Virus record (IMG/VR): IMGVR_UViG_3300028800_002449
Source of the DNA: a virus
Direction: 5' to 3' (one strand)
DNA length: 64,000 nt
Numbering within the stretch: the first letter of the stretch is position 1; each line of letters starts with the position of its first letter. Shown here piece after piece: positions 10,623 to 27,874 of this stretch. Below the pieces are notes generated by a model. That model worked only from the letters and a program-made list of their open reading frames with translations, was not told the origin of the DNA and searched no databases. Made by a program: the position numbers and the translations under genes.

Positions 10623-10627
10623 AATAG

Positions 10628-10701
10628 TACCGGCTAGGAGACTCGAACTCCTAACATGCTGGTTCTGAACCAACCGCCTCTTCCAATTGGGCTAAGCCGG
10701 C
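10628..10701 (-). tRNA. tRNA with anticodon CAG (reads CUG) but a class-I structure with a short variable loop; atypical
   Basis: Hand fold: acceptor GCCGGCT/AGCCGGT, T-arm AGGAG-TTCGAGT-CTCCT, anticodon loop TTCAGAA, 5-nt variable loop, 3-bp D-stem. Confidence 0.5.
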
Positions 10702-10706
10702 GTTTG

Positions 10707-10789
10707 TGCGAACGGGGGGACTCGAACCCCCACGGTCTTTCGACCACCAGCACCTCAAGCTGGCGCGGCTACCACTACGCCACGTTCGC
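10707..10789 (-). tRNA. tRNA-Leu(GAG), class II
   Basis: Anticodon arm CCAGC-TTGAGGT-GCTGG, long variable arm, T-arm GGGGG-TTCGAGT-CCCCC; close to E. coli tRNA-Leu. Confidence 0.75.
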
Positions 10790-10795
10790 AGAACT

Positions 10796-10942
10796 TCAAT
10801 CGATCGGATCTCCGCAGCTGCCACACCACATGTGGATGCCCTTCATCTTCGGCACCGACATCTTCCTGCAACTGGGGCAGAAGGCCTTCGCCTTCTTCGT
10901 TTCGTGCTTCAGCTTGATCGCGATCGTCTTCTTCTTCGGCAT
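10796..10942 (-). CDS. mini Zn-ribbon protein (48 aa, MPKKKTIAIKLKHETKKAKAFCPSCRK...CGSCGDPID)
   Basis: C-terminal part of track ORF 10796..11287; sits between tRNA-Leu and tRNA-Asp; CxxC...CxxC. Confidence 0.3.
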   Translation of the reverse strand: MPKKKTIAIKLKHETKKAKAFCPSCRKMSVPKMKGIHMWCGSCGDPID

Positions 10943-10959
10943 CAAGCTGAAGCTACAGC

Positions 10960-11033
10960 GGAACCAGGGGGATTTGAACCCCCGATCTCCTGCGTGACAG
11001 GCAGGCGAGAACTCCAGGCTTCTCCATGGCTCC
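10960..11033 (-). tRNA. tRNA-Asp(GTC)
   Basis: Anticodon loop CTGTCAC, anticodon stem CCTGC/GCAGG, T-arm GGGGG-TTCAAAT-CCCCC. Confidence 0.75.
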
Positions 11034-11037
11034 AAAA

Positions 11038-11586
11038 TCAGAAATGTGACCTCAAGAATCTTCTCAGATGCGTGCCCACGAGGACGGCATCTGCCTTGGG
11101 ATGAACGTCGAGGCGGCTCCTGATGTTGCTCGCCTGACAGAGCCATCCCGCGCCGTGGATCTTCCGCGCATCTTCGAAAGACTCCTTCTTCAGTCCTCCC
11201 GTCGACAAGTCGCGACTGTTCCACACTACCCTTTGACGACTCGGCATGAGGTTCATCTGTCGGAGGGAAGTCGGTTCGAGGATGCACTTCGGCATCAGCT
11301 CATAGTGTGGAACTCGTCCCACGACCAAGACGTAGTCGGCCCCGCAACCGAGAGCCGCTCGAACCTCTTCGTCGCTGTCGTGGATTCCCTTCGCGAGGAT
11401 GGGCTTGTTCGTCTGCTTCCTCGCCCTGTAGAGATGGTGGAAGGAACCACCCCACCGCGGGTCCGTATGGATCGACAGCCAGTCACCGGCTTCGCTCGCG
11501 AGGTGGAAGAGGGCTTCCCAGCTCTCCTTGCTCTCCCAGCCGAAGGGCGAGCACGTCTTCACCTCGGCGATAAGAATATGACTCAT
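11038..11586 (-). CDS. indole-3-glycerol-phosphate synthase (TrpC)-like (beta/alpha)8 barrel protein
   Basis: IAEVKTCSPFGW (the TrpC IAExK.aSPSkG motif), LSIHTDPRWGGSF, ILAKGIHDSDEEVRAALGCGADYVLVVGR; trimmed from track ORF 11038..11856, whose 5' part runs into tRNAs. Confidence 0.55.
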   Translation of the reverse strand: MSHILIAEVKTCSPFGWESKESWEALFHLASEAGDWLSIHTDPRWGGSFHHLYRARKQTNKPILAKGIHDSDEEVRAALGCGADYVLVVGRVPHYELMPKCILEPTSLRQMNLMPSRQRVVWNSRDLSTGGLKKESFEDARKIHGAGWLCQASNIRSRLDVHPKADAVLVGTHLRRFLRSHF

Positions 11587-11590
11587 CTCG

Positions 11591-11663
11591 TACGCACGGA
11601 GGGACTCGAACCCTCGATGTCCCGGATGTGAGCCGGGTGCCTTAGCCGCTAGACGACGTGCGC
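11591..11663 (-). tRNA. tRNA-Val(CAC)
   Basis: Anticodon arm CCCGG-CTCACAT-CCGGG; T-arm GAGGG-TTCGAGT-CCCTC. Confidence 0.7.
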
Positions 11664-11675
11664 ATAACAGTTTCG

Positions 11676-11747
11676 TGCGAGCGGCAGGGATCGAACCTGC
11701 GACCCCTTCGATGTCACCGAAGTGCTCTTCCGCTGAGCTACGCTCGC
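11676..11747 (-). tRNA. tRNA-Val(GAC)
   Basis: Anticodon arm CTTCG-GTGACAT-CGAAG; T-arm GCAGG-TTCGATC-CCTGC. Confidence 0.7.
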
Positions 11748-11795
11748 AATATCTGACCTCGACATCATAGTGGATGACGTCGTAATCACGAAGCT

Positions 11796-11871
11796 TGGTC
11801 AGACCGGCGGGACTCGAACCCGCGACCTCATCTTCCCCAAAGATGCGCGCTACCAACTGCGCTACGGCCTG
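11796..11871 (-). tRNA. tRNA-Pro(GGG), genomically encoded CCA
   Basis: Anticodon arm CATCT-TTGGGGA-AGATG; 3' end CGGTCTG-A-CCA. Confidence 0.75.
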
Positions 11872-11873
11872 AG

Positions 11874-11949
11874 TGGTACCAGCGGCGGGACTCGAACCCG
11901 CTACCTCACCGTTATGAGCGGTGCGCTCTTCCAGTTGAGCTACGCTGGC
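11874..11949 (-). tRNA. tRNA-Met (or Ile2) (CAT), encoded CCA
   Basis: Anticodon arm CACCG-CTCATAA-CGGTG; 3' end CGCTGGT-A-CCA. Confidence 0.7.
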
Positions 11950-11952
11950 GTG

Positions 11953-12210
11953 CTACTTCATCGCGAGGAGCATCTTGTAGGCCATCGCCATAGGCGCGCC
12001 GATCTTGCCTGTGTTTTCCAGGCGACCGATCAGAGCTTCAACGGCTTTCCAGGCCTCCGTCTCTGCCCCGTACTGCCTCGCTATTTCAATCATCGTCCTG
12101 ACCTCGTTGTTGTTCACGGTCACGAAGACCGACTTCGTCACCGTCACCTTCTCCTCCAAGATCTTAACCTTCTCGTCGAAGTAGATGTGCTGCCTGTCAG
12201 GGTGTCCCAT
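11953..12210 (-). CDS. small hypothetical protein (85 aa) inside the tRNA array
   Basis: ORF track; fits exactly between two tRNA genes. Confidence 0.4.
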   Translation of the reverse strand: MGHPDRQHIYFDEKVKILEEKVTVTKSVFVTVNNNEVRTMIEIARQYGAETEAWKAVEALIGRLENTGKIGAPMAMAYKMLLAMK

Positions 12211-12261
12211 TGAAGTTGCGTATCTTAGCCAAGATGACGTTCGACCGTCAAAGAGATGCTG

Positions 12262-12336
12262 TGCCCGCGGAGGGACTCGAACCCCCGACCTTTTCGTTCG
12301 TAGCGAAACGCTCTATCCAAGCTGAGCTACGCGGGC
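12262..12336 (-). tRNA. tRNA-Arg(ACG)
   Basis: Anticodon arm TTTCG-CTACGAA-CGAAA; T-arm GGGGG-TTCGAGT-CCCTC. Confidence 0.75.
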
Positions 12337-12342
12337 ATGAAA

Positions 12343-12378
12343 AACTTGACACTATTTTGTATTTTGCTTAAGATACTC
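12343..12378 (+). promoter_or_regulatory. sigma70-like promoter: -35 TTGACA, 17-nt spacer, -10 TAAGAT; carries the conserved TATTTTGTATTTTGCTTAAGATA element
   Basis: Read directly at 12343-12372; a GGAGA Shine-Dalgarno-like sequence follows, then ATG at 12405. Confidence 0.6.
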
Positions 12379-12404
12379 CTAGAACCCACCGAGGAGACAA
12401 CCAC

Positions 12405-12731
12405 ATGAAGCGCATCGTCAGGATCTGCATCGGAGTCGCCATCGCGCTGTTCGGCAGCGCCCTCGCCTCAGGAGCCATCAAAGCTGGTCCCGGCCTCATG
12501 CTCGGAGGCGTCATCTTCGGGGCCGGCTTCGGGGCCGTCGGAGCGCTCGCCTACCTCGGCGGCCGGCAGGACTACGCCGGCCGCATCGGCACCGTCTTCA
12601 TCCTCTTCGTCGGAGGCATCGCCGTCTTCACCCAGAGACAGACGGCTCTCGCCCTCGTCCCCTCCGCGACGGCAGGCCTTCTGGTAGGATTCGCGGTCTG
12701 CCTCACCTTCTTGAACATCTCGGAAGGATGA
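12405..12731 (+). CDS. small Gly/Ala-rich integral membrane protein (108 aa)
   Basis: Four hydrophobic G/A-rich segments; promoter and ribosome-binding site upstream. Confidence 0.6.
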   Translation: MKRIVRICIGVAIALFGSALASGAIKAGPGLMLGGVIFGAGFGAVGALAYLGGRQDYAGRIGTVFILFVGGIAVFTQRQTALALVPSATAGLLVGFAVCLTFLNISEG

Positions 12732-13267
12732 CCATGTTGACGCTCGTCCTCACGCCCCGCCTTCAGTTGTCGTTGTCCTGCAAGATCTGCCGGCAGAACC
12801 GCAACGAAGAGAAGGCTCGGCAAGCGACGATGGACGTCACCCTCTACGGACAAGAGCCGTTCGCCACTTGTCCCTGCTGCCATCAGAAGGTTGAAAGTTT
12901 CACAGATCCTCGGTACCAAGAGAGAGCACGCACCTACTTCGAAAAAGGAGAGACTCAGATGACCATCGCTTCCGCAGCCCCCATCGTGATGAAGGACGAC
13001 GTTTGGATGGACCTCGACCCGCGTGCCAAGGGACGCGAGATCCGCGTCCTCTCGGTCGACGACGACTTCGCTCGATGCAAGCGCGTCTCCGGCACTGGGC
13101 CCGTCACCAAGATCCGCCTCGATCGCTTCAAGCCGAGCCGCGGCGGCGACGGCAAGAAGGGCTTCAAGTTCGTGTCGCGCCCTCCGATCCAGCCCATCAT
13201 CCAGCCGGGCTCGTCCGTCGCGCAGATGCAAAGCATCCACGGTCCTCACGACCTTCAGGCTGACTGA
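12728..13267 (+). CDS. hypothetical protein with N-terminal Cys cluster (179 aa)
   Basis: ATGA overlap with the upstream gene; CKIC...CPCC motif. Confidence 0.5.
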   Translation: MTMLTLVLTPRLQLSLSCKICRQNRNEEKARQATMDVTLYGQEPFATCPCCHQKVESFTDPRYQERARTYFEKGETQMTIASAAPIVMKDDVWMDLDPRAKGREIRVLSVDDDFARCKRVSGTGPVTKIRLDRFKPSRGGDGKKGFKFVSRPPIQPIIQPGSSVAQMQSIHGPHDLQAD

Positions 13268-13276
13268 TCCTATCTG

Positions 13277-13349
13277 TGCGCTCGGAGGGACTCGAACCCC
13301 CGACCCTCGGCTTCGGAGGCCGACGCTCTATCCGCTGAGCTACGAGCGC
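13277..13349 (-). tRNA. tRNA-Arg(CCG)
   Basis: Anticodon arm TCGGC-CTCCGAA-GCCGA. Confidence 0.7.
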
Positions 13350-13355
13350 ATCTCG

Positions 13356-13428
13356 TGCGTCTGGAGGGACTCGAACCCCCGACCCTCAGTTTAGAAAACC
13401 GTCGCTCTATCCACTGAGCTACAGACGC
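13356..13428 (-). tRNA. tRNA-Arg(TCT)
   Basis: Anticodon loop TTTCTAA with a 4-bp stem; an alternative register would give CTA. Confidence 0.6.
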
Positions 13429-13443
13429 AGTACGATCTTCTGC

Positions 13444-14079
13444 ATGAAAAATCTCGCGTTCCCGATCATCGCCGTCGGATGCCTGCTCACAGCCGGCATC
13501 CTCACTCGATGTCCGGCGCCCGTCCCAGCCGTGCAACATCAGCTGACCTTCGCGAACGAGACGTCGTCACCCGCGACAGTCTACGTAGCCTTCGGCTCGA
13601 ACTCAGTCGTCCTGCCTACCAACTGGTCATCCTTCTGCACCGGCAGCGGCCTCAACTGCACCTTCCCGATCGCCGCCAACTCCACGCAGGTGGCACCACT
13701 TGGGGGTCAGTACCTGAACGCCACCATAGCCTTCAACGCGCCCGTGAACTGCGGCTCGACGAAGGCCGAGATGAACATCAACACGTCGAACAACACCGAC
13801 AACTACGACGTCAGCCTCGTCGACGGCTACAGCAACAACGTTAAGATCAACGTCGGCGGGACCATCCTTGGACCACCGAACGACAAGGGCGACAACCAGA
13901 AGGTCTTCGGCCTGTTCCCCTTCGGCTGCGACATCTGCGTCGCTCGCCAGAACCCTCAGTGCGGCATCCCTCGTGGGACTGGCGGCTGCAAGGGCGGAAC
14001 CCAGTACAAGCCGGACGTCCTGTGCCAGTACCAATCGCCCACGCAGGCCGTCCCCGTGAAGATCTCCCTCGTCCCGTAA
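13444..14079 (+). CDS. secreted Asn/Ser/Thr-rich protein with thaumatin-like similarity
   Basis: N-terminal signal peptide (MKNLAFPIIAVGCLLTAGIL); NYDVSLVDGYSNNVKIN resembles the thaumatin DISLVDGFN block; 16 Cys; at least 8 N-x-S/T sequons. Confidence 0.45.
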   Translation: MKNLAFPIIAVGCLLTAGILTRCPAPVPAVQHQLTFANETSSPATVYVAFGSNSVVLPTNWSSFCTGSGLNCTFPIAANSTQVAPLGGQYLNATIAFNAPVNCGSTKAEMNINTSNNTDNYDVSLVDGYSNNVKINVGGTILGPPNDKGDNQKVFGLFPFGCDICVARQNPQCGIPRGTGGCKGGTQYKPDVLCQYQSPTQAVPVKISLVP

Positions 14080-14087
14080 GCTCGAAC

Positions 14088-14120
14088 GGCGACCTCCTCC
14101 TTGGAATCGAGGAGGTCGCC
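14088..14120. terminator. bidirectional factor-independent terminator hairpin (12-bp stem GGCGACCTCCTC / GAGGAGGTCGCC) between convergent genes
   Basis: Perfect inverted repeat with a 9-nt loop between 13444..14079(+) and 14127..14579(-). Confidence 0.55.
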
Positions 14121-14126
14121 CTTCGG

Positions 14127-14579
14127 TCAGTACCGCCGCTTGTGATTGTGGTGAAGGATGCCCTCGTAGTCGACCCAGAACTTCGGGCCGCCGTCGAGGA
14201 ACCAGCCCCTCAGGTACCTCACGCTATCCGGCTTCTCGACACGGTTCACCAGGTGCTCGTAGACGATGTGTCTGCCGGGGAGGGTGTTCGTGTCGAAGCG
14301 CCTGACGATCTCAGAGACGACATCGTCCCAGTGACGGCCCGCGCGAGACGCCAGGAAGCGCTCGCAGGGTCTCGTCTTGTCGGCGTGGATGTCTTCGCGG
14401 TAGTGGGAGTACCTCTCGGGCTCCATCTCCTCGTCGAAGTCGATCGTGCCGACACGCACCGCTCGACAGTAGCGGTGATTCTTGATGCGGAACTCGCGCA
14501 GCGAGATCCTCCTGTCGTACTTGTCGTGGTTGCTCCGACCGCCCTCGATGACGGTCCGAGCCAGATTCTTGGTGGACAT
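14127..14579 (-). CDS. hypothetical protein (150 aa)
   Basis: ORF track. Confidence 0.5.
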   Translation of the reverse strand: MSTKNLARTVIEGGRSNHDKYDRRISLREFRIKNHRYCRAVRVGTIDFDEEMEPERYSHYREDIHADKTRPCERFLASRAGRHWDDVVSEIVRRFDTNTLPGRHIVYEHLVNRVEKPDSVRYLRGWFLDGGPKFWVDYEGILHHNHKRRY

Positions 14580-14638
14580 GTGAACCTCCTAATGAGCTGT
14601 TCGCATGACGCACCTCCTTTCGTGTTCGTTGTTCAGAG

Positions 14639-14713
14639 CGACCCTGGGGGGAGTTGAACCCCACATTTGCTGATTGAGAATCAGCTGTCCTAGCCAAGTT
14701 AGACGACAGGGTC
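14639..14713 (-). tRNA. tRNA-Glu(CTC)
   Basis: Anticodon arm GCTGA-TTCTCAA-TCAGC; discriminator G. Confidence 0.7.
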
Positions 14714-14719
14714 ATGTCG

Positions 14720-14792
14720 TGACGTCGACGGGAGTCGGACCCGCACATGGCAGATTGAAAATCTGCTGGCCTACCAATTAGCCTACGACGCC
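14720..14792 (-). tRNA. tRNA-Glu(TTC)
   Basis: Anticodon arm GCAGA-TTTTCAA-TCTGC; T-loop TCCGACT. Confidence 0.65.
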
Positions 14793-14803
14793 ATACTGAT
14801 TCT

Positions 14804-15250
14804 GTGGAGATGCCGGGAGTCGAACCCGGGTCCAATCAAGCTTGGGTTCAGAGCACTACGAGCGTGTTCAAGATTTCGGGGGCCAGCGTTCTCGACGGAC
14901 GCCGCTGCGGGTTTTCAGCCCACAGAGATTTCTGCCCTCCACCACTCATGATCCCGAGTTCAGTCCTTCCCACTCGGTCGGATAAAGTCCTCGGCGCAGT
15001 CGACATGAGAAAACGTTCGCGCCTCGGAACCCCATTGCTTAGCGTCAGTCCCACTAGGGGTGTGAGCTGGTACTGACGTCCTCTATGCTCTCGCGGGGAT
15101 TAGGCCGCGGCGGCGAGAGGAGCTGCGTATGCGTCGTTGAGGACGCCGTTGTCGTTCGCAGTTGTTTTTGGTCCGCTTTTTACAAGGCCTGCTGACCAAC
15201 CTTGGCTCGCGCTCTGATCTTGTTCTCGACTGTCGAAACCGTTTCATCCC
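14804..15250 (-). ncRNA. ssrA: tmRNA (ssrA), standard one-piece; predicted tag (A)ANDNGVLNDAYAAPLAAAA-stop
   Basis: 5' GGGGATGAAACGGTTTCGAC matches the tmRNA consensus GGGGcUGauUcuGGaUUCGAC. 3' tRNA-like end GGACCCGGGTTCGACTCCCGGCATCTCCA. The 5' GGGGATG pairs with the 3' CATCTCC. Resume codon GCG lies after an A-rich stretch and is followed by a 19-codon frame ending in TAA (plus 15099..15158). Confidence 0.85.
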
Positions 15251-15254
15251 CTTA

Positions 15255-15337
15255 GCTGTGAGGGTGGGACTCGAACCCACAGTTGTCTTTCGACGCGCGG
15301 TTAACAGCCGCGTGCTTTGCCATTCAGCGCACCTCAC
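15255..15337 (-). tRNA. atypical tRNA with anticodon GTT (Asn) and a long variable arm closed by a GAAA tetraloop, with a degenerate D-arm; lies 4 nt upstream of ssrA
   Basis: Acceptor TGTGAGG/CCTCACA, anticodon arm CGCGG-CTGTTAA-CCGCG, 15-nt variable arm (GTC-GAAA-GAC), T-arm GTGGG-TTCGAGT-CCCAC. Confidence 0.45.
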
Positions 15338-15347
15338 AAAAGAATCA

Positions 15348-15542
15348 TCAGAATTTCCACTTCACGTTCTCCACACACGAACAGGGTTTCACCGGAGTGC
15401 CGACTGCACCTCCGATGATGGTCTCGTCGGGCTCTCCCGTCGGCACGAGACGCATCCCCTGACACCTGCGACAGCGACCGACCCGCATCTTACGCCGCTG
15501 CGCGCCCCTCTTCTCGCCCTCTTTCGTTTTTTCTTCGCTCAC
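15348..15542 (-). CDS. small basic Cys-containing protein (64 aa)
   Basis: ORF track; sits between the tRNA-like gene and tRNA-Thr. Confidence 0.3.
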   Translation of the reverse strand: MSEEKTKEGEKRGAQRRKMRVGRCRRCQGMRLVPTGEPDETIIGGAVGTPVKPCSCVENVKWKF

Positions 15543-15579
15543 GCTTCACCCAAACCCATGTCTTGAGTCGTATACATAT

Positions 15580-15655
15580 TGGAGCCGGCGAAGAGACTCG
15601 GACTCTCAACCTGCTGATTACAAATCAGCTGCTCTACCAATTGAGCTACACCGGC
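15580..15655 (-). tRNA. tRNA-Thr(TGT), encoded CCA
   Basis: Anticodon arm GCTGA-TTTGTAA-TCAGC; T-loop TCCGAGT. Confidence 0.7.
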
Positions 15656-15808
15656 AAGACGATATCGGTCGGAGCGCCCCCTCCACCTCGGCAGCATCCT
15701 GAGCTGGGAGGCGAAAGGAAGCTGACTCATACGACGGCCTACCAGTGCCGTCGCCCCAACGGGAGGGGACGCTCACGACCTTCCTTGAAATCTAGTAAGA
15801 TTGTGGGC

Positions 15809-16528
15809 ATGGCCAAGGTCACACCCGAGCTTGCCAGCCGGATAGAGCGTCTCACCAAGAAGTACAGCGAGATGCTCTGCACCTCGTGTCCGACGCCCGA
15901 GTACCAGATCCAGGACAACATCACCTCGAACTGGCTCGGCCTCGCATCCTGGTGGATCACCAGACCGCAGCACACAGTCATCAAGTTCCAGAAGCGCATC
16001 ATCGACGATCCGACGACCTTCGAGCGCATCTCCGCTCACGAATGGATCCACCACGTCAACTACATGACGATCACGGCCAAGGACATCGCCTACCTCCGCG
16101 CCGGCCTCAAACAAGACGGCCACGGCGCCGAGTTCATGAAGTACGCGACCATCATCAACTCCCACATGGGAGCCGACTTCGTGACCCCCGTGTCCGACAA
16201 GTCCTACGTGAAGAGCGAGTCGGGGAAGACGATCAACCTCCTCATCGTGAAGGTACCAAGGAAGAACGCCCTCGCCTGGTCGTGGAACGTCAGGATGACT
16301 CCGAAGGTGAGGAACTGGATCGACAGACGGCTCGCGCTTGGAGACGCCAGGTTCTTGCAGGTCAAGGACGATCACTGGATCATCGGCGCCAAGCTCGACG
16401 GGTACGGCAAGCAGTCCATCGCGCGTGAAGGGGAGGAGACCGAAAAGCTTCTGAAGCTCTATGAGGCCGCCCCTGATCCCAAGGCCGCTGTGACACCGTT
16501 CGGTACCTTGCCGCCGGCCTCTGCCTGA
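15809..16528 (+). CDS. putative zinc metallopeptidase (HExxH), about 240 aa
   Basis: SAHEWIHH motif; ATG after a TAAGAT -10-like element; track ORF 15563..16528 trimmed to the first ATG past the tRNA. Confidence 0.5.
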   Translation: MAKVTPELASRIERLTKKYSEMLCTSCPTPEYQIQDNITSNWLGLASWWITRPQHTVIKFQKRIIDDPTTFERISAHEWIHHVNYMTITAKDIAYLRAGLKQDGHGAEFMKYATIINSHMGADFVTPVSDKSYVKSESGKTINLLIVKVPRKNALAWSWNVRMTPKVRNWIDRRLALGDARFLQVKDDHWIIGAKLDGYGKQSIAREGEETEKLLKLYEAAPDPKAAVTPFGTLPPASA

Positions 16529-16731
16529 GCCGAGGCCTCCATCGACTCCTTCGTGATCCGCTTGCAGTCGGGACACGTCGTCAGCTTCCTCGCCGGATGG
16601 ATCGAGAAGCCGTCGATCTTCCTCACCCCGCATGCGCCCAGCTCGTTCCCGAGGCTGTAGCTCCGCTTGTTGTGGGCCATCGAGGAGCGATGGACGAACC
16701 CGCCCTTGTGCTCCGTGCCGTCTCTCTTCAT
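16459..16731 (-). CDS. hypothetical small protein (antisense overlap with the upstream gene; doubtful)
   Basis: ORF track; CPDC motif; a 70-nt antisense overlap lowers confidence. Confidence 0.2.
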   Translation of the reverse strand: MKRDGTEHKGGFVHRSSMAHNKRSYSLGNELGACGVRKIDGFSIHPARKLTTCPDCKRITKESMEASAQAEAGGKVPNGVTAALGSGAAS

Positions 16732-16774
16732 CTCCGAAGTGTAGATGAATCTTAGGCAAAAGTCAAAATAGTAA

Positions 16775-16878
16775 TGGTAGCGGGGACCGGATTCGAACCG
16801 GTGAAACCGAGGTTATGAGCCTCGTGGGTTTCGAGCCTACCTTTTTAGGGGCAGACCCTCCAGACTTCCCTACCCCGC
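16775..16878 (-). tRNA. atypical CAT-anticodon tRNA-like gene with a roughly 30-nt insertion in the 5' half (pseudo-tRNA or intron-bearing), encoded CCA
   Basis: 3' half is canonical: anticodon arm CGAGG-CTCATAA-CCTCG, T-arm ACCGG-TTCGAAT-CCGGT, CCCCGCT-A-CCA. The 5' acceptor GCGGGG is separated from the anticodon arm by about 48 nt instead of 19. Confidence 0.4.
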
Positions 16879-16880
16879 AG

Positions 16881-16953
16881 AGCCCGCGAGAAGAATCGAA
16901 CTTCCTACCTACCGCTTACGAAACGGTTGCTCTTCCAAATGAGCTACGCGGGC
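16881..16953 (-). tRNA. tRNA-Thr(CGT)
   Basis: Anticodon arm ACCGT-TTCGTAA-GCGGT; T-arm GGAAG-TTCGATT-CTTCT. Confidence 0.7.
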
Positions 16954-17749
16954 TAACATGTTTACGAGACCTACATGCCTTCACCTCTAAGACGGTTTTC
17001 TTAACATGCTCTTCATGCCATAGGGGTTGAAGGTTCCTGAAGTGACAAGCTTTCAAAAGCTGAACACCATCAGAAAGATTAAACCCTGACAGCGGCTCTT
17101 TGTGATCGATTTGCCACTTACCAGGACCCCGGCCCCAGTTCTCCCAGCTCATTCCGATCTGCCATAAAGATTCAATGTACTTTCTAAGTTCGCTAGCACT
17201 GCATCCAAGATTTTTAATTGCTGAGCCGGCACGTCTCTTTCCTTGTAAGCGAACAATGTCAGCCAGTCGTGTGCGGAGCTGCCTACACATTCGATACTGC
17301 ACGTCAGAACGTGATTTATCCCTGACATAACGACTCAGTTTTTCCCTATTCAGATGAATGTATCGCTTGGAATAGCTAATGACGTGGTCGAGGTTGTTTT
17401 TCCTCCATGTCGCCATCCAAGTTTTTCTCTTCTTGCCGTTTTTAAGCCTGTAACTTCTGTCAAGCTCCTTGACATGCTCTGGATTTCTTTTCCTCCATGC
17501 CCTTACTTGTTCCCTGGATCGTTCCGGGTTTAGCCTACGGAATTTTGTACAGGCCTTTGCAGAGCACTCACGACAAGATGAATAGAGTCCGCTTGGTCTT
17601 CTACGATCGGGAGTGAACTTGGTGATGAGTCTTCGTTTCTTGCACGAAGCACATTTCTTTCTTTTAGTAGTTCGTAAGAAATTCAATGACTCAGGATTCA
17701 CCGGGGCGATCTTTCCTGCGTTCTTTGTTTTCCAGTCGCTTGGCAGCAT
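16916..17749 (-). CDS. HNH homing endonuclease
   Basis: C-terminal WQIDHKEPLS...GFNL...NLQPLWHEEH (HNH motif); the gene is markedly AT-richer than its flanks and its 3' end overlaps the 5' half of tRNA-Thr(CGT). Confidence 0.6.
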   Translation of the reverse strand: MLPSDWKTKNAGKIAPVNPESLNFLRTTKRKKCASCKKRRLITKFTPDRRRPSGLYSSCRECSAKACTKFRRLNPERSREQVRAWRKRNPEHVKELDRSYRLKNGKKRKTWMATWRKNNLDHVISYSKRYIHLNREKLSRYVRDKSRSDVQYRMCRQLRTRLADIVRLQGKRRAGSAIKNLGCSASELRKYIESLWQIGMSWENWGRGPGKWQIDHKEPLSGFNLSDGVQLLKACHFRNLQPLWHEEHVKKTVLEVKACRSRKHVSPRSSFGRATVS

Positions 17750-17750
17750 T
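16955..17750 (-). mobile_element. AT-rich HNH-endonuclease insertion within the tRNA array (freestanding homing-endonuclease-like cassette)
   Basis: Sharp GC drop relative to flanking tRNA DNA; HNH ORF; abuts tRNA genes on both sides. Confidence 0.4.
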
Positions 17751-18365
17751 GTGGGCTCTGTCGTAGCTCCACCCCTTGCGCATCAGTTCAGTTTCATGAC
17801 ATTCATGCAGCAGGACGTAGGGCCATTCGGCCTCAGGCACGTGCCAGTCGACCCACAGCTCACCCTTCGGCACGAAGCCATACCGGAACTCGTTGCCGCC
17901 CTGGATGAAAGCGCAGTCGATCGCCCGAACATGCAGGCCGTCGACCAGGTAGACCTTCAAGCCGTGCTTGCAGGTCATGTCGGCGTCCTTCTTCCAAGGC
18001 GCCTTCTTGCTCGACTTCATCCTCGCAAGACGCGCTTCTTTTTTCCGGTCCGCGTCCTCGACCTTCTTGGCCTTGTCGTAGGCGCCGACGAAGGTGCCAT
18101 TGCCCTTCCGGAGTGACTCGGCCTGTCGGCATTCGTTGTCGATCAGATGGTGGACCTCCTTCGGCAGCACCGCCCAGTCGATCCAGATCTCACCCTTCGG
18201 GATGTACGTCGCGTTCCAGCCCGAGCCCTGCACGAAGTCGCTGTCGATGTTGTTCCTCACGTAGGTCCCGTCCACGAGGTGGACCTTCAGACCATGCACG
18301 CATGACACCTGCGCGCCGCGCAGCGTCAGTGGCCGTTTCGCAAGGCCGCGCATGTGCTTGTTCAT
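17691..18365 (-). CDS. hypothetical protein built from two tandem copies of a roughly 95-aa domain
   Basis: Repeats CVHGLKVHLVDGTYVRN...PKGEIWIDW and CKHGLKVYLVDGLHVRA...PKGELWVDW; start re-called at MNKHMRG. Confidence 0.5.
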   Translation of the reverse strand: MNKHMRGLAKRPLTLRGAQVSCVHGLKVHLVDGTYVRNNIDSDFVQGSGWNATYIPKGEIWIDWAVLPKEVHHLIDNECRQAESLRKGNGTFVGAYDKAKKVEDADRKKEARLARMKSSKKAPWKKDADMTCKHGLKVYLVDGLHVRAIDCAFIQGGNEFRYGFVPKGELWVDWHVPEAEWPYVLLHECHETELMRKGWSYDRAHNAAKRLENKERRKDRPGES

Positions 18366-18384
18366 GCTTCGAGAGAATATCACT

Positions 18385-18460
18385 TGGAGCCGACGGCGTG
18401 AATCGAACACGCGACCTCTCCCTTACCAAGGGAGCACTCTTCCACCTGAGCTACGCCGGC
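18385..18460 (-). tRNA. tRNA-Thr(GGT), encoded CCA
   Basis: Anticodon arm CTCCC-TTGGTAA-GGGAG. Confidence 0.7.
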
Positions 18461-18469
18461 AAGAAATTG

Positions 18470-18540
18470 AGCACCGTGCGAGATTCGAACTCGCATCTCT
18501 GACTTGGAAGGCCAGGTCCTAACCACTCGGACAACGGTGC
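18470..18540 (-). tRNA. tRNA-Gly(TCC)
   Basis: Anticodon arm CTGGC-CTTCCAA-GTCAG; 71 nt. Confidence 0.65.
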
Positions 18541-18548
18541 AAAAACTG

Positions 18549-18622
18549 AGCGGATGACGAGACTCGAACTCGCGAACCTCCTCGATGGCAACGAGGCGCT
18601 CTACCAACTGAGCTACATCCGC
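18549..18622 (-). tRNA. tRNA-Gly(GCC)
   Basis: Anticodon arm CCTCG-TTGCCAT-CGAGG. Confidence 0.7.
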
Positions 18623-18965
18623 AAAAATAGGCGCCCAGTTTCGGAAGGGACGACCGGGCGGCGTCGCGACGAGGCCTAATCCTCGCCTTGCAGTGACTTC
18701 CTTGAGGTCGGCCGTACGAGGTTCGAAAAACCTTGTGACGCTTGGGTCCTCCAACGTGAAGTCGTCCTGGTCCTGTCAGAACGAAAGACACGTTTTCCAA
18801 GCTCGCCGTCAGGATCATGTGACGGACTGGGCCTTCCGCGGCGCCGCGTGAGCTTTCGAAGGACAGGTTCTGCTTTCCCACTCGGGGACAGCCCCGTCCA
18901 GGAAGGTAGATGACACCTTCCACCCACGCAGGATTCAAGGAGACATCACTCCTCGCCCGCAGCAT

Positions 18966-19039
18966 TGGAGACGACGGCGAGAATCGGACTCGCGATGGGG
19001 GTTTTGCAGACCCCTGCCTTGCCGCTTGGCTACGTCGTC
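18966..19039 (-). tRNA. tRNA-Cys(GCA), encoded CCA
   Basis: Anticodon arm GGGGT-CTGCAAA-ACCCC; acceptor GACGACG. Confidence 0.7.
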
Positions 19040-19048
19040 ATGAACCAG

Positions 19049-19137
19049 AGGAAGCGGAGAGAATCGAACTCTCGGAGCCCGTGAAGGCCCGTCCGGATAG
19101 CAACCGGGTGCAGCGAACCAACATCTACCTCGCTTCC
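19049..19137 (-). tRNA. tRNA-Ser(GCT), class II
   Basis: 89 nt; anticodon loop TTGCTAT; long variable arm; acceptor GGAAGCG. Confidence 0.65.
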
Positions 19138-19139
19138 AG

Positions 19140-19226
19140 AAGAGAGAGTGAGATTCGAACTCACGGACGTTTTCCAACGCCTCCAGTTTTCAAGACTGGC
19201 GCCTTAAGCCGCTCGGCCATCTCTCC
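19140..19226 (-). tRNA. tRNA-Ser(TGA), class II
   Basis: Near-identical to E. coli tRNA-Ser: GGAGAGATGGCCGAGCGG...CCAG-TCTTGAAA-ACTGG... Confidence 0.8.
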
Positions 19227-19418
19227 AAAATTAGACTCGGCCGGAGGCCCCGTCCCTCCGTGCTTCATCGGGCCGCGATCGGACGACATCACTGTTCATC
19301 TACACTGCCAGCTGGCCGAGAAGCAGAAATAACTCTCGGCCTGCGGATCCTCCCCTACTCCCCAGCGTATCGATGAGAGCGACACGCCACCATTCCGCAG
19401 GCCGAGAAAACAGACGAG

Positions 19419-19491
19419 TGGAGCTGACCGGACTCGAACCGGCCACCTCTCCCTTGCGAAGGGAGCGCTCTTCCAGATGAGCTACAGCCCC
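19419..19491 (-). tRNA. tRNA-Ala(CGC) with the G3:U70 identity pair
   Basis: Acceptor GGGGCTG/CAGCTCC (G3-U70); anticodon arm CTCCC-TTCGCAA-GGGAG. Confidence 0.75.
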
Positions 19492-19706
19492 GAGAGCTTG
19501 ACGAACGAATGGTGCCGGAGCGCCCTCACGAGCGTCGAGTTCATCGACTTCGTCTTCTTCGTGTGAGGAGGGAGCTTCAACGGCATCACGTCTTCGAAGA
19601 GCGCCGCGCAGTAGATGCATCGCTTGACCCCTGGCTCCCAGGGATCGTCATCGAACGCGTGAACGCATGGTGCGAACAGGACGCCTTTTCTCATCATGTT
19701 TGGCAT
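19482..19706 (-). CDS. small Cys-containing protein (74 aa) driven by the conserved promoter element
   Basis: ORF track; upstream (reverse complement of 19742-19775) lies CTATCTTGTATTTTG...AAGAT, close to the 12343 promoter. Confidence 0.4.
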   Translation of the reverse strand: MPNMMRKGVLFAPCVHAFDDDPWEPGVKRCIYCAALFEDVMPLKLPPHTKKTKSMNSTLVRALRHHSFVKLSGL

Positions 19707-19741
19707 TGGGTAGCCTGAACTTAAAGTCGATCTCTCTTATG

Positions 19742-19775
19742 GCAAGTAAGATAATTTGGATCTTTTTCAAAATAC
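19742..19775 (-). promoter_or_regulatory. conserved promoter-like element (reverse complement reads TATCTTGTATTTTGAAAAAGATC)
   Basis: Shares the TATyTTGTATTTTG block with the 12343 promoter. Confidence 0.35.
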
Positions 19776-19828
19776 AAGATAGCCACGATCCCTACAGGTA
19801 ACACGGGAAAAACCCCCTGTTTTTAGTG

Positions 19829-19902
19829 TGGCGGGCACCCCAGGATTCGAACCCGGTCGGGCGGATTTGGAATCCACCTGGTCGCCGATGACGCTGGTGC
19901 CC
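19829..19902 (-). tRNA. tRNA-Trp(CCA), compact (71 nt), encoded CCA
   Basis: Anticodon arm GTGGA-TTCCAAA-TCCGC; short D-arm. Confidence 0.6.
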
Positions 19903-19929
19903 TCGTATCGAGTAAGCCGAAACACCTCG

Positions 19930-20002
19930 TGGAGTCGACCGGACTCGAACCGGCCACCTTCCGCATGCCATGCGGACGCTCTTCCAGATGAGCTACGACC
20001 CC
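19930..20002 (-). tRNA. tRNA-Ala(GGC) with G3:U70
   Basis: Acceptor GGGGTCG/CGACTCC; anticodon arm TCCGC-ATGGCAT-GCGGA. Confidence 0.7.
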
Positions 20003-20060
20003 GTCCTGCTGAAACACCTTCTCAGGTCGAGAGGGTTTTCCCTCACGCTGAAAAACCCGG

Positions 20061-20133
20061 TCGGGGCGAGAGGGATCGAACCTCCTGCCTCATGCTCCCA
20101 AAGCACGCGCTCTACCAAATGAGCTACGCCCCG
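20061..20133 (-). tRNA. tRNA-Pro(TGG)
   Basis: Anticodon arm CGTGC-TTTGGGA-GCATG. Confidence 0.7.
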
Positions 20134-20140
20134 AAGAAAT

Positions 20141-20218
20141 TGGGGTGGACGACGAGACTTGAACTCGCTTGACACTGGTTCACAGCCAGTGGGCTCGACC
20201 GCTTCGCCCTCGTCCACC
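20141..20218 (-). tRNA. tRNA-His(GTG) with an encoded G-1 and CCA
   Basis: Anticodon arm ACTGG-CTGTGAA-CCAGT; extra 5' G opposite discriminator C73. Confidence 0.75.
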
Positions 20219-20233
20219 AGAAGATTCATAAGC

Positions 20234-20282
20234 CCCTTCGGCCTTCAGCGCACCTCGTGGGGGAGCTTCAGGCCGAAGAGGT
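20234..20282. repeat. 8-bp-stem hairpin CTTCGGCC...GGCCGAAG in a tRNA spacer
   Basis: Inverted repeat read directly; no U-tract follows. Confidence 0.3.
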
Positions 20283-20283
20283 T

Positions 20284-20356
20284 AGTAGGACCGGGCAGAT
20301 TCGAACTGCCGACCTTTCGCTTATCAAGCGAACGCTCTGCCAACTGAGCTACGGTC
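20284..20356 (-). tRNA. tRNA-Ile(GAT)
   Basis: Anticodon arm TTCGC-TTGATAA-GCGAA. Confidence 0.75.
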
Positions 20357-20364
20357 CCGTGCTG

Positions 20365-20514
20365 CTACTTCAAGCTGATGAGGAAAGCGGCCAAGCCGGC
20401 TATGAAAGCCCCCTTGCCGAGTTCAGCCAGCTTCCCGCTGCTGACGCCATAAACGACCGCGCCGACGACGGCCACAATTCCTGATATTCCGAGTGTGATG
20501 TGCATGAAGTCCAT
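20365..20514 (-). CDS. 49-aa single-pass membrane peptide (MDFMHITLGISGIVAVVGAVV...)
   Basis: C-terminal segment of track ORF 20365..20757, which upstream runs through tRNA genes. Confidence 0.3.
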   Translation of the reverse strand: MDFMHITLGISGIVAVVGAVVYGVSSGKLAELGKGAFIAGLAAFLISLK

Positions 20515-20531
20515 CCTATCATCTCGTGGAA

Positions 20532-20604
20532 TAGAGGGAGTGGGACACGATCCCACGACGTGCCGCTTATAAAGTGGCTGCTCTTCCGGCTGAGCTATCC
20601 CTCC
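20532..20604 (-). tRNA. tRNA-Ile-like with anticodon TAT and a non-canonical T-loop (ATCGTGT)
   Basis: Anticodon loop TTTATAA, A:C mismatch in the anticodon stem, T-loop lacks A58. Confidence 0.45.
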
Positions 20605-20609
20605 ACTTG

Positions 20610-20681
20610 TCGGGGTGAGAGGAATCGAACCTCCGACCTTCTGTTCCCGAAACAGACGCGCTACCCCTGCGCTACACCCCG
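20610..20681 (-). tRNA. tRNA-Pro(CGG)
   Basis: Anticodon arm TCTGT-TTCGGGA-ACAGA. Confidence 0.7.
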
Positions 20682-20767
20682 TTGGTCGGAGAGCTGATTG
20701 GTTTATTCTCCAGCGCCGTAGTTTTCCGTCTACGGACTTATGACTCAGAAGAGCCACTATTCTCCGA

Positions 20768-20844
20768 TGGTGCCCGGGGAGGGAATCGAACCCTCTACCT
20801 TTCCCTCTTCAGGGGAACGCTCTACCAAGTGAGCTACACCGGGC
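20768..20844 (-). tRNA. tRNA-Phe(GAA), encoded CCA
   Basis: Anticodon arm TTCCC-CTGAAGA-GGGAA; T-arm GAGGG-TTCGATT-CCCTC. Confidence 0.7.
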
Positions 20845-20849
20845 GTAAT

Positions 20850-20895
20850 CGCGGTGGTGGCTTCCACCGCGCCCATGATTTTCTATTTGATTTTC
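20850..20895 (+). terminator. GC hairpin (CGCGGTGG...CCACCGCG) followed by a T-rich tract; putative terminator
   Basis: 8-bp GC stem followed by CCCATGATTTTCTATTTGATTTT. Confidence 0.3.
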
Positions 20896-20924
20896 ACAGA
20901 ACCAGCCACCTGCCGATGGCGGAG

Positions 20925-20997
20925 TACCGAGGGAAGGGCTCGAACCTTCAATCTGCTGGGCCAGAACCAGCCGTCCTGCCAATTAGACCACCTCGGT
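20925..20997 (-). tRNA. tRNA-Gln(CTG)
   Basis: Anticodon arm GCTGG-TTCTGGC-CCAGC. Confidence 0.7.
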
Positions 20998-21006
20998 ATG
21001 TACTGT

Positions 21007-21077
21007 CCTCAGGGAACGATTCGAACGTTCATAGGCGGGTCCAAAGTCCGCCGTCCTGCCGTTAGACGACCTGAGGA
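21007..21077 (-). tRNA. tRNA-Gln(TTG)
   Basis: Anticodon loop CTTTGGA; paralog of the adjacent Gln(CTG). Confidence 0.6.
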
Positions 21078-21148
21078 TGTCGATGTGGATGCATCGACCC
21101 TCGTTGTCGCTCACGTCGCATGTTGATCTCCTCGTTCATTTTCATCCG

Positions 21149-21223
21149 TGGGCTGAGAGGGACTCGAACCCTCGACCGTTCGCTTAAGAGGCGACTGCTC
21201 TAATCCAACTGAGCTACCAGCCC
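21149..21223 (-). tRNA. tRNA-Lys(CTT)
   Basis: Anticodon loop CTCTTAA; T-arm GAGGG-TTCGAGT-CCCTC. Confidence 0.65.
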
Positions 21224-21365
21224 GTTCCGCTGCTTCCTCTGCTTCCTCGCGTCGATACTCCTCCGTGTACTCGTCGTAGATCTTCCTGTTGCTCGGGTCA
21301 GCCAAGAACTCTTCGATGTAGCTCGTCGCTCGGGATTTCCTCAGCTTCGTCAGCTCATCCATATC

Positions 21366-21479
21366 TCAATGCTTCTTGTCGCAGTCCTTGTCGTCGCTCG
21401 TCCACGTGCATGTCGCCGTCGTGCAGATCCTGCGCACGTAGACGACGATCGTTTCTCCATTGCAGCAGGGACATTTCAT
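21366..21479 (-). CDS. 37-aa Zn-ribbon mini-protein (MKCPCCNGETIVVYVRRICTTATC...)
   Basis: Hand-called ORF between tRNA-Lys genes; CPCC...C..C. Confidence 0.25.
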   Translation of the reverse strand: MKCPCCNGETIVVYVRRICTTATCTWTSDDKDCDKKH

Positions 21480-21484
21480 CTCGG

Positions 21485-21557
21485 TGCCCTCGGTCGGATT
21501 CGAACCGACGATTCAGCGCTTAAAAGGCGCGGGTGATGGCCGCTTCACTACGAGGGC
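21485..21557 (-). tRNA. tRNA-Lys(TTT)
   Basis: Anticodon loop CTTTTAA; D-stem GTGA/TCAC. Confidence 0.65.
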
Positions 21558-21629
21558 GAACGGATTCGCTCGCCCTGCGTTTGCTTTCTGCCAACCTCTG
21601 CTTCGTCATACTCATGTCGTTTCTTTTCG

Positions 21630-21714
21630 TGGGAGCTGAAGGACTCGAACCTTCGAAGGTCGCGATGACCGCCTGGTTTACAGCCAAGTTCTTTTGCCGC
21701 TTAGAAAAGCTCCC
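21630..21714 (-). tRNA. tRNA-Tyr(GTA), class II
   Basis: 85 nt; anticodon arm CTTGG-CTGTAAA-CCAGG; long variable arm. Confidence 0.7.
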
Positions 21715-23386: not shown

Positions 23387-23395
23387 GAGGCCCCC

Positions 23396-24124: not shown

Positions 24125-24149
24125 TCGCTCTAGGAAAGGAAGATCCTCC

Positions 24150-25586: not shown

Positions 25587-25589
25587 GCG

Positions 25590-26784: not shown

Positions 26785-27032
26785 GCACTGTCGAGATCCA
26801 GCCTCAAGACGTCCAGGACGGCGTCGTGATCGCCTCAGAAGGTCATCCGGAATGTCCAGAGCCCTGCGGCTGCGACGAATCGAACGCGATGCGCGATCTC
26901 CTCGAATGCATCATCCAGTACGACTCCGACGTCAACCCCTGCGACCCTGAACACTGTCAAGGAAAGTGCGCCTTCTGCCAGGCGCGCGTCCTGCTCGAAC
27001 GTCTCGAAGAGAAAAGGAAGCTGCGAAGATGA
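26781..27032 (+). CDS. small Cys-rich protein (83 aa)
   Basis: CPEPCGC ... CDPEHCQGKCAFC. Confidence 0.45.
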   Translation: MSTVEIQPQDVQDGVVIASEGHPECPEPCGCDESNAMRDLLECIIQYDSDVNPCDPEHCQGKCAFCQARVLLERLEEKRKLRR

Positions 27033-27852: not shown

Positions 27853-27874
27853 CCTGAGAAGTTAGGATACATCC

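Follow-up and report, generated by a model that had tools for sequence, protein, structure and literature searches.

Results

A dense tRNA gene array in a viral sequence

We analyzed a stretch of viral DNA of 64,000 nucleotides (IMG/VR record IMGVR_UViG_3300028800_002449), referred to below as the window, which holds a dense array of tRNA genes. Four atypical members of the array, labelled (a) to (d), are treated individually, above all (c), a candidate initiator tRNA with an additional helix in its D loop. Genes in the window were called with ARAGORN, in default and intron mode, and with Rfam at the gathering score; compared viral and metagenome loci are designated by L-numbers (L003, L004 and so on). 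The array comprises 36 tRNA genes and one transfer-messenger RNA (tmRNA) gene on the minus strand between positions 10627 and 21714, with small open reading frames (ORFs) in between (Table 1). A first-pass annotation, made from the letters alone, had proposed about 36 tRNA genes on this strand, including structurally non-canonical members, and both points were borne out. Its list had left out the class II tRNA-Leu(GAG) and the tmRNA. The G3:U70 pair in both tRNA-Ala genes and the additional G-1 in tRNA-His, which it had pointed out, were read from the gene sequences.

ARAGORN called 35 of the tRNA genes, and gene (c) is the thirty-sixth. The Rfam gathering score was exceeded by 33 of the 35; the two genes below it, tRNA-Trp(CCA) with 25.4 bits and tRNA-Ser(GCU) with 30.3 bits to the tRNA-Sec model, are both conserved in relatives. 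A scan of the array for T-arm-like motifs reported no elements beyond the known genes. The tRNA set serves all 20 amino acids, where near-complete coverage had been claimed, and under simple wobble rules it can decode 96.3% of the 10,690 codons of 34 window ORFs. In these ORFs CTC and CTG account for 57 and 22% of the Leu codons, AAC for 92% of the 329 Asn codons, and ATA for 2% of the Ile codons (13 codons).

The window has a G+C content of about 60%, and a nucleotide search of 50,697 GenBank phage records yielded no close relative. One of its proteins was found identical on a metagenomic contig of 260,842 bp. As the window carries genes of phage type (a terminase-large-subunit-like fragment, Dam, a ParB-like protein, SNF2 and RecD2 helicases, a PolB-type exonuclease and an NAD-salvage group), we conclude that it is part of a jumbo phage. 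Through homologues of a 150-aa protein encoded in the array we located syntenic arrays in L003 (80% identity of the protein) and L004 (65%), both with 37 ARAGORN tRNAs and a tmRNA, as well as the more distant L018 and L019. A protein search of viral contigs with a 229-aa array ORF gave no match. The array in itself is an ordinary feature of large phages.

Gene (c) appears to carry an additional helix in the D loop

Gene (c) has the CAT anticodon and the insertion in the 5′ half that the first-pass annotation had described, in a range one base longer than it had given. The insertion lies in the D loop and spans about 24-26 nt, and the earlier figure of about 30 nt is replaced by one of about 26 nt. 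Default ARAGORN made no call here and the Rfam match was partial (26.4 bits); with 105 nt, the gene departs from the standard four-arm cloverleaf of about 77 nt owing to the D-loop helix. Run in intron mode, ARAGORN returned only a "tRNA-Gly(gcc) with intron", an artefact in which the extra hairpin is taken for the anticodon arm. We discarded this assignment because the hairpin loops vary in size and sequence among homologues, whereas the CAU arm is invariant. [quoted passage not shown] The extra helix follows G18G19 (16861-16860) and sits between G19 and A21, with an invariant G-C closing pair.

In L003 and L004 a homologue with a CAT anticodon lies directly after tRNA-Thr(CGU), and its insertion is at the same site with another sequence. 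Pattern scans of viral and metagenome contigs raised the number of distinct sequences to nine (window, L003, L004, L009 and L021-L025), and in all nine a single C separates the discriminator of tRNA-Thr(CGU) from the first base of the initiator-type gene. All nine inserts fold over their full length into hairpins of 7-12 bp (z of -2.2 to -4.6 versus shuffles); the hairpin loops differ, four of them being GNRA tetraloops. In a model-based alignment 88.9% of the cells in the extra helix are paired and seven of its eight pairs are altered on both sides. The whole structure is 96.7% paired, compared with 80.3% in shuffled alignments, none of 500 of which reached 96.7%, and slid registers pair at 32-54%. 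RNAalifold independently gave the same five helices.

At the syntenic place in the more distant L018 there is a normal initiator-like tRNA of 74 nt with U1/U72, the top match to the model among those that lack the hairpin (60.2 bits), and we therefore place the gain of the helix within the clade of (c). A model search of 122 unrelated viral tRNA-rich loci (1.03 Mb) found no further hairpin-bearing initiator, which argues that the feature is clade-specific. Among 185,579 species, represented by one genome each, there was no homologue either, as all seven pattern matches were spurious coding sequence. The same was true of the matches in L007, L008, L010-L017, L020 and L027, and an exact pattern taken from the 3′ half of (c) matched only unrelated normal phage initiator tRNAs (L001 and L002). 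A full-text literature search and a review of non-canonical tRNAs provided no description of a helix in a tRNA D loop, a search of incomplete coverage that is no proof of novelty. The comparative support is strong, and it points to (c) as a new structural variant of the initiator tRNA. Directly after the gene, ahead of a small ORF, lies a sigma-70-like promoter (TTGACT-17-TACACT, 16738-16766, minus strand), whose motif is conserved in L003 and L004.

Identity and possible function of gene (c)

The determinants of formylation and initiation include an unpaired 1:72, A73, G2-C71, C3-G70, G4-C69 and a purine-pyrimidine pair 11:24 (PMC9976931), as well as G-C pairs in the anticodon stem (PMC6393288). 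U1/U72, which forms no Watson-Crick pair, is present in all nine homologues and in the hairpin-less orthologue of L018. A73 and the three pairs 2:71, 3:70 and 4:69 are invariant in the nine, and so is G11:C24, where the elongator-like tRNA-Met of the array has C11:G24. The anticodon loop reads CTCATAA in eight of the homologues and TTCATAC in L004, and the three G-C pairs 29-31:39-41 are complete in L003, L024, L025 and L018. With the helix removed, (c) is identical to E. coli tRNA-fMet at 60 of 81 positions and to elongator tRNA-Met at 52 of 81; the other CAT tRNA of the array shows the opposite preference. The array has no other initiator-type gene. A templated CCA was considered as a mark of the initiator and dropped, since nine of the 36 array genes encode CCA; among the homologues of (c), three of nine do.

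These features suggest a route by which (c) could be used. It would be co-transcribed 1 nt behind tRNA-Thr(CGU) and freed by RNase P, charged by MetRS through its CAU anticodon, accepted by the formyltransferase through the acceptor-stem and 11:24 determinants listed above, all of which are present, and used at the P site as an initiator. Its D loop would be turned into an internal loop from which the second helix projects near positions 20-21, at a conserved place and with a sequence that is not conserved. An initiator tRNA enters the P site directly, bypassing EF-Tu and the A site, and this may be why only (c) tolerates an appendage on the side of the elbow. The role of the helix would most likely be steric; speculatively, it may set the phage initiator apart or protect it from enzymes acting on that of the host.

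Insertion at one precise site, a sequence that varies freely while the hairpin stays, and the hairpin-less orthologue in L018 would also fit an intervening sequence, cut out after transcription by a nuclease and a ligase to leave a mature initiator of normal size. We consider this unlikely. The insert is a plain, continuous hairpin in the D loop, away from the anticodon-loop position of tRNA introns in bacteria, far too short for a group I or group II intron and without a bulge-helix-bulge, Rfam reported no intron match at (c), and the first-pass suggestion of intron-bearing genes thus finds no support. Stems of 7-12 bp are also short for RNase III, excision would leave a D loop of about 13 nt, and neither an RNA ligase nor a splicing endonuclease was seen in the 64-kb window of this 260-kb genome.

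The unusual shape of (c) and its rejection by the predictors raise the alternative of a tRNA-like decoy or regulatory RNA, which could, for instance, titrate a host nuclease or toxin directed against tRNA-fMet or act by binding a phage protein. Phage tRNAs have been suggested to work against tRNA-targeting defences, among them the action of VapC on tRNA-fMet (PMC10264068). However, the CAU loop, the acceptor determinants, the CCA encoded in three phages and the nucleotides of tertiary pairs are conserved beyond what a decoy needs, and the array would be left without an initiator-type gene, so that a decoy appears as improbable as excision. An initiator tRNA with a permanent D-loop helix is the interpretation that we retain for (c).

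Gene (a) belongs to a phage family of tRNA-Leu with a short variable loop

Gene (a), described earlier as a CAG tRNA of class I structure, was confirmed as such. Its anticodon is at 10667-10665, its variable loop has five nucleotides (ATGTT), its D arm is GCC-CAATTGGAAGA-GGC, and it has G1.U72 and A73. A73, U8-A14 and A15-U48, the Leu identity set of E. coli as given in PMC6614811, are all kept. The gene is identical in L003. In L009 it has diverged by compensatory changes in three stems with the D arm unchanged, and this locus also has a version with a UAG anticodon. L004 and L018 carry ordinary class II tRNA-Leu(CAG), in L004 at the position syntenic to (a).

The D-arm motif of (a), TAGCCCAAY(N)GGNANAGGC, matches at least 120 viral contigs. 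We parsed 112 motif carriers as cloverleaves, and all 112 have Leu anticodons (TAA 48, TAG 35, CAA 16, AAG 5, GAG 5, CAG 3) and A73; U48, opposite A15, is present in 109 and a 5-nt variable loop in 105, and A14 and A15 are fixed in the motif. Because the family is so strictly tied to Leu anticodons and A73, we assign (a) to it, as a CAG representative of a large class I tRNA-Leu family of phages. Half of the 112 genes have G1.U72. Cultured phages of Cronobacter, Enterobacter, Vibrio and Streptomyces carry a gene of this type, annotated as tRNA-Leu. The LeuRS enzymes of Enterobacteria and Vibrio are thought to require class II tRNA, and the family nevertheless occurs in phages of both. Among aligned tRNAs, the nearest-neighbour identity of (a) is 0.60-0.68 to many isotypes, and it does not point to a single origin. 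Our literature search revealed a sole parallel, the type I tRNA-Leu(CAA) of Streptomyces coelicolor, which is leucylated by its own LeuRS and not by that of E. coli (PMC6614811). We conclude from its sequence and family that (a) is probably a functional tRNA of Leu identity.

Gene (b) is a tRNA-Asn with a long variable arm

For gene (b) the GTT anticodon and the long variable arm closed by GAAA stand as first reported, whereas the D arm, which had been called degenerate, has a class II-type stem of 3 bp and one additional connector nucleotide. The variable region has 15 nt, with the stem-loop GTC-GAAA-GAC, and is thus within the class II size range (at least 10 nt). Bacterial class II tRNAs are those for Leu, Ser or Tyr, and the GUU anticodon of (b) places it outside them; compared with a normal tRNA-Asn, it differs by the long variable region, G9 with one extra connector base, and the 3-bp D stem. 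GUU, U1-A72 and G73 correspond to the determinants of Asn charging and of the amidotransferase (PMC9976931).

The design recurs in L003, L023 and L025 with other, compensatory arm stems. Three unrelated viral contigs also carry a long-arm tRNA-Asn(GUU), which brings the total to seven phage contigs, four clade members and three others. The arms of all seven are capped by GAAA or GAAU and all seven keep G73; the variable-arm stems are compensatory in L003, L023, L025, L156 and L157. In seven other members of the clade the tRNA-Asn is normal, with a length of 73-77 nt, and G73 is found in all 11 Asn genes of the clade. The long-arm gene of L003 and the normal gene of L004 share their acceptor, anticodon and T arms. 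Taken together, these comparisons indicate a tRNA-Asn that acquired a covarying variable arm and a class II-type core.

A change of identity has to be weighed here, in which the long arm and G73 would make (b) a substrate of SerRS and AAC/AAU would be read partly as Ser. Both are features cited for SerRS recognition (PMC7609411), which counts against a plain Asn identity, and nematode V-arm tRNAs with anticodons other than Leu and Ser offer a precedent (PMC3333845). Yet the set of GUU, G73 and U1-A72 coincides exactly with the determinants for Asn and for the amidotransferase, and the arm has 3-5 bp, compared with about 6 bp in the phage's own tRNA-Ser. Moreover, (b) is the sole Asn tRNA of the array, AAC makes up 92% of the 329 Asn codons, and mis-insertion would hit the whole proteome. 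Given the short arm and this sole responsibility, we regard charging by SerRS as quite improbable, and a tRNA-Asn with an acquired arm as the better description of (b).

Supernumerary variable arms were seen on other isotypes as well. The unrelated loci L138, L150, L156, L049, L098 and L117 carry tRNA-Ile(UAU) genes of 89-96 nt with a long variable arm whose loop has a conserved CCAGATTAG motif, and such arms also occur on Pro, Arg, Glu, Gln, Lys, Cys and Met tRNAs. Conversely, L025 (1550-1623) encodes a 74-nt class I tRNA with the Ser anticodon CGA and A73, which should escape SerRS because it has no long arm.

Gene (d) and the question of pseudogenes

Gene (d) has the TAT anticodon and the T loop without A58 that had been noticed at first: the loop reads AUCGUGU, with A54 and U58, and the anticodon stem has an A30xC40 mismatch. 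Loops of this A54/U58 type (AUCGUNN) were seen again in at least 18 other phage tRNAs, which belong to several isotypes, and also in the tRNA-Ser(GCU) of L009 and L023. This recurrence suggests a tolerated, swapped 54-58 pair rather than damage. The tRNA would read AUA without lysidine. Our interpretation of (d) is the least secure of those for the four genes.

Some related tRNA-Ile genes are themselves unusual. C33, in the loop UCUAUAA, replaces the near-universal U33 in the tRNA-Ile(UAU) of L009 (4162-4235), L018 (13174-13247), L023 (10584-10658) and L025 (1936-2009); the tRNA-Ile(UAU) of L004 has an anticodon loop of 8 nt; and L009 (2909-2985) and L023 (12733-12807) encode tRNA-Ile with an AAT anticodon (A34), an uncommon choice in systems of bacterial type.

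The first-pass annotation had raised the idea that the atypical genes are pseudo-tRNAs, decaying and without function. Low predictor scores, the lack of a call for (c), and the stem mismatch and odd T loop of (d) would be expected from decay. Compensatory substitutions in (a), (b) and (c) across diverged phages would not, nor would a family of (a) bound to Leu anticodons or the recurrence of the T loop of (d). We consider the idea very unlikely for the group, with only (d) weakly open to it. Its suggestion of altered identity fared no better: (a) has A73 and a family that is Leu-only in 112 of 112 cases, (b) has GUU, G73 and U1-A72, and (c) keeps the formylation determinants. Genes (a), (b) and (d) are members of recurrent, little-described phage tRNA variants.

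Further features of the window

The tmRNA, which ARAGORN missed, matches RF00023 over its full length (125.9 bits, model positions 1-374), and has tRNA-like ends and a tag frame, ANDNGVLNDAYAAPLAAAA*, with a hydrophobic, Ala-rich tail. Its position is 4 nt downstream from tRNA-Asn; L003 and L004 conserve it, and L021 has one too. The acceptor stems of five tRNAs, Leu(CAG), Met, Ile(GAU), Ile(UAU) and Val(CAC), are closed by a G1.U72 wobble. A gap of 191 nt (19227-19417) marks the place where L003 and L004 hold tRNA-Ser(GGA) and tRNA-Ser(CGA); as the window has neither, the phage set leaves TCC and TCT codons (32% of Ser) uncovered.

An ORF of 277 aa (16916-17749, minus strand) is endonuclease VII/HNH-like (phrog_1035), lies in a stretch of 54% GC and overlaps tRNA-Thr(CGU) with its tail. 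It is missing at this place in L003 and L004 and therefore looks like a mobile endonuclease in a tRNA array; SegB is a comparable endonuclease in the tRNA array of T4. Two TIM-barrel-like ORFs of the tryptophan pathway are unexpected in a phage, one resembling IGPS (11038-11589, minus strand, E 7e-8) within the array and the other PRA isomerase (32740-33522, plus strand, E 7e-5). The NAD-salvage group (22658-29675, plus strand) consists of an NrtR-type Nudix regulator, a NAMPT-like protein and a cytidylyltransferase-like (NMNAT-type) protein; the L004 homologue of the NAMPT-like protein matches NAMPT_N/NAPRTase. Three neighbouring, paralogous ORFs on the plus strand (7512-8417, 9087-9572 and 9475-10275) share a C-terminal "HPD" motif (…YHPD…YQQVI.A..TIE.Y) reminiscent of J domains, and a Pfam search with one of the three gave no match. 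In L019 a Ro60/TROVE-vWA protein (17043-18620) is encoded a few kb from the tRNA array; the 631-aa VWA protein of the window (3405-5300) has no TROVE match.

Table 1. Genes and sub-features of the tRNA array, in window coordinates.
Feature	Position	Strand	Source or remark
(a) tRNA-Leu(CAG), class I	10627..10701	-	ARAGORN, Rfam
tRNA-Leu(GAG), ordinary class II	10706..10789	-	ARAGORN, Rfam
tRNA-Asp(GTC)	10958..11033	-	ARAGORN, Rfam
tRNA-Val(CAC)	11590..11663	-	ARAGORN, Rfam
tRNA-Val(GAC)	11675..11747	-	ARAGORN, Rfam
tRNA-Pro(GGG)	11796..11871	-	ARAGORN, Rfam
tRNA-Met(CAT), elongator-like, nearer E. coli elongator than initiator	11874..11949	-	ARAGORN, Rfam
tRNA-Arg(ACG)	12261..12336	-	ARAGORN, Rfam
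tRNA-Arg(CCG)	13276..13349	-	ARAGORN, Rfam
tRNA-Arg(TCT)	13355..13428	-	ARAGORN, Rfam
tRNA-Glu(CTC)	14638..14713	-	ARAGORN, Rfam
tRNA-Glu(TTC)	14719..14792	-	ARAGORN, Rfam
tmRNA, one piece	14802..15251	-	Rfam
tmRNA tag ORF	15159-15100	-	reads ANDNGVLNDAYAAPLAAAA*
(b) tRNA-Asn(GTT), anticodon 15305-15303	15255..15338	-	ARAGORN, Rfam
(b) long variable region C-GTC-GAAA-GAC-AACT	15281..15295	-	
tRNA-Thr(TGT)	15580..15655	-	ARAGORN, Rfam
(c) candidate initiator-type tRNA(CAT), encoded CCA, anticodon 16817-16815	16775..16879	-	comparison
(c) predicted extra helix: G-C closing pair, 8 bp, 8-nt loop	16833..16858	-	inside D loop
tRNA-Thr(CGT)	16880..16953	-	ARAGORN, Rfam
tRNA-Thr(GGT)	18385..18460	-	ARAGORN, Rfam
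tRNA-Gly(TCC)	18469..18540	-	ARAGORN, Rfam
tRNA-Gly(GCC)	18548..18622	-	ARAGORN, Rfam
tRNA-Cys(GCA)	18966..19039	-	ARAGORN, Rfam
tRNA-Ser(GCT)	19048..19137	-	ARAGORN only; 30.3 bits to Rfam tRNA-Sec model
tRNA-Ser(TGA)	19139..19226	-	ARAGORN, Rfam
tRNA-Ala(CGC), G3:U70	19418..19491	-	ARAGORN, Rfam
tRNA-Trp(CCA), small 3-bp D arm	19829..19902	-	ARAGORN; Rfam 25.4 bits, sub-threshold
tRNA-Ala(GGC), G3:U70	19929..20002	-	ARAGORN, Rfam
tRNA-Pro(TGG)	20059..20133	-	ARAGORN, Rfam
tRNA-His(GTG), G-1	20141..20217	-	ARAGORN, Rfam
tRNA-Ile(GAT)	20285..20358	-	ARAGORN, Rfam
(d) tRNA-Ile(TAT), anticodon 20571-20569, T loop 20551-20545	20532..20604	-	ARAGORN, Rfam
tRNA-Pro(CGG)	20609..20681	-	ARAGORN, Rfam
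tRNA-Phe(GAA)	20768..20844	-	ARAGORN, Rfam
tRNA-Gln(CTG)	20924..20997	-	ARAGORN, Rfam
tRNA-Gln(TTG)	21005..21076	-	ARAGORN, Rfam
tRNA-Lys(CTT)	21148..21223	-	ARAGORN, Rfam
tRNA-Lys(TTT)	21483..21557	-	ARAGORN, Rfam
tRNA-Tyr(GTA), class II	21629..21714	-	ARAGORN, Rfam

Discussion

The array probably represents a near-complete decoding set of a jumbo phage that fits the codon usage of the phage itself, in which the four atypical genes are functional variants with their standard identities kept and (c) is the phage initiator tRNA. Several observations speak against this view and temper our confidence in it. [quoted passage not shown] The charging of (a) would depend on the host enzyme, as the E. 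coli LeuRS failed on the Streptomyces type I tRNA-Leu (PMC6614811). The T loop of (d) is common to L003 only, its closest relative, other relatives having canonical loops, and the anticodon-stem mismatch together with the rarity of AUA (13 codons) means that selection on (d) may be weak.

The size of the cloverleaf and the number of its arms are among the most conserved features in biology, and to our knowledge the variable arm is the only natural extra tRNA arm accepted so far. An initiator tRNA whose D loop bears a covariation-backed helix, as kept by nine or more diverged giant phages, would add a new architecture to those of natural tRNAs, and (c) could offer a natural scaffold on which to build initiator tRNAs that are orthogonal or tagged. 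Since standard tRNA finders miss or mislabel (c), censuses of phage tRNAs would undercount initiators. Two little-noticed phage variants, the class II-like tRNA-Asn and the class I tRNA-Leu, raise questions on recognition by synthetases and on the arms race over tRNAs; the latter extends even to phages that infect hosts with a LeuRS believed to require class II tRNA.

Phage tRNA arrays are currently viewed as fitting phage codon usage or as replacing host tRNAs destroyed by defence nucleases (PMC10264068; PMC7162821). Prompted by the first of these sources, we raise the speculative idea that the helix and the other architectural variants aid escape from tRNA-targeting nucleases. In its strongest form, which is tentative and in our judgment has the odds against it, the helix of (c) would make an "orthogonal" phage initiator that is still charged, formylated and used by the ribosome, yet unseen by enzymes that degrade or sequester the initiator of the host, such as host VapC-type nucleases or a phage-encoded shut-off factor; with (a), (b) and the A54/U58 loops, large phages would then be systematically re-engineering tRNA architecture to keep translating under tRNA-targeting immunity.

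Like the arrays of mycobacteriophage cluster C1 and of "huge phages", the present one gathers dozens of tRNAs and a tmRNA in one block. It differs in belonging to another, uncultured lineage and in that the variation reaches tRNA architecture and not merely the bases of the anticodon loop. Gene (a) resembles the type I tRNA-Leu(CAA) of S. coelicolor in its short variable loop, its coexistence with class II tRNA-Leu and its retained U8-A14; unlike it, (a) is phage-encoded, has a CAG anticodon, and comes from a family marked by a fixed D-arm motif. In the stem-loop form of its variable arm, in G9 and in a D stem of 3 bp, gene (b) resembles class II tRNAs (Leu, Ser, Tyr) as well as the V-arm tRNAs of nematodes, but it differs from class II tRNAs in having the anticodon, discriminator and 1:72 pair of a tRNA-Asn and a short arm of 3-5 bp. 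Non-canonical D-arm introns of archaeal tRNAs, like the insert of (c), interrupt the D region of a tRNA gene with extra sequence; unlike them, the insert has no bulge-helix-bulge at its boundaries, and what is conserved is the existence of a hairpin, not splice signals. The context of (c) also appears bacterial, because of the tmRNA and the sigma-70-like promoter. The closest counterpart of (c) is the bacterial tRNA-fMet (E. coli metZWV/metY), with which it shares CAU, an unpaired 1:72, the formylation determinants, the purine-pyrimidine pair 11:24, G-C pairs beside the anticodon loop and, compared with E. coli, identical acceptor-stem positions 2-7. It would depart from the E. coli molecule in the nested D-loop helix of 7-12 bp, in a length of 105 rather than 77 nt, in U/U instead of C/A at 1:72 and, in the window, in A29-U41.

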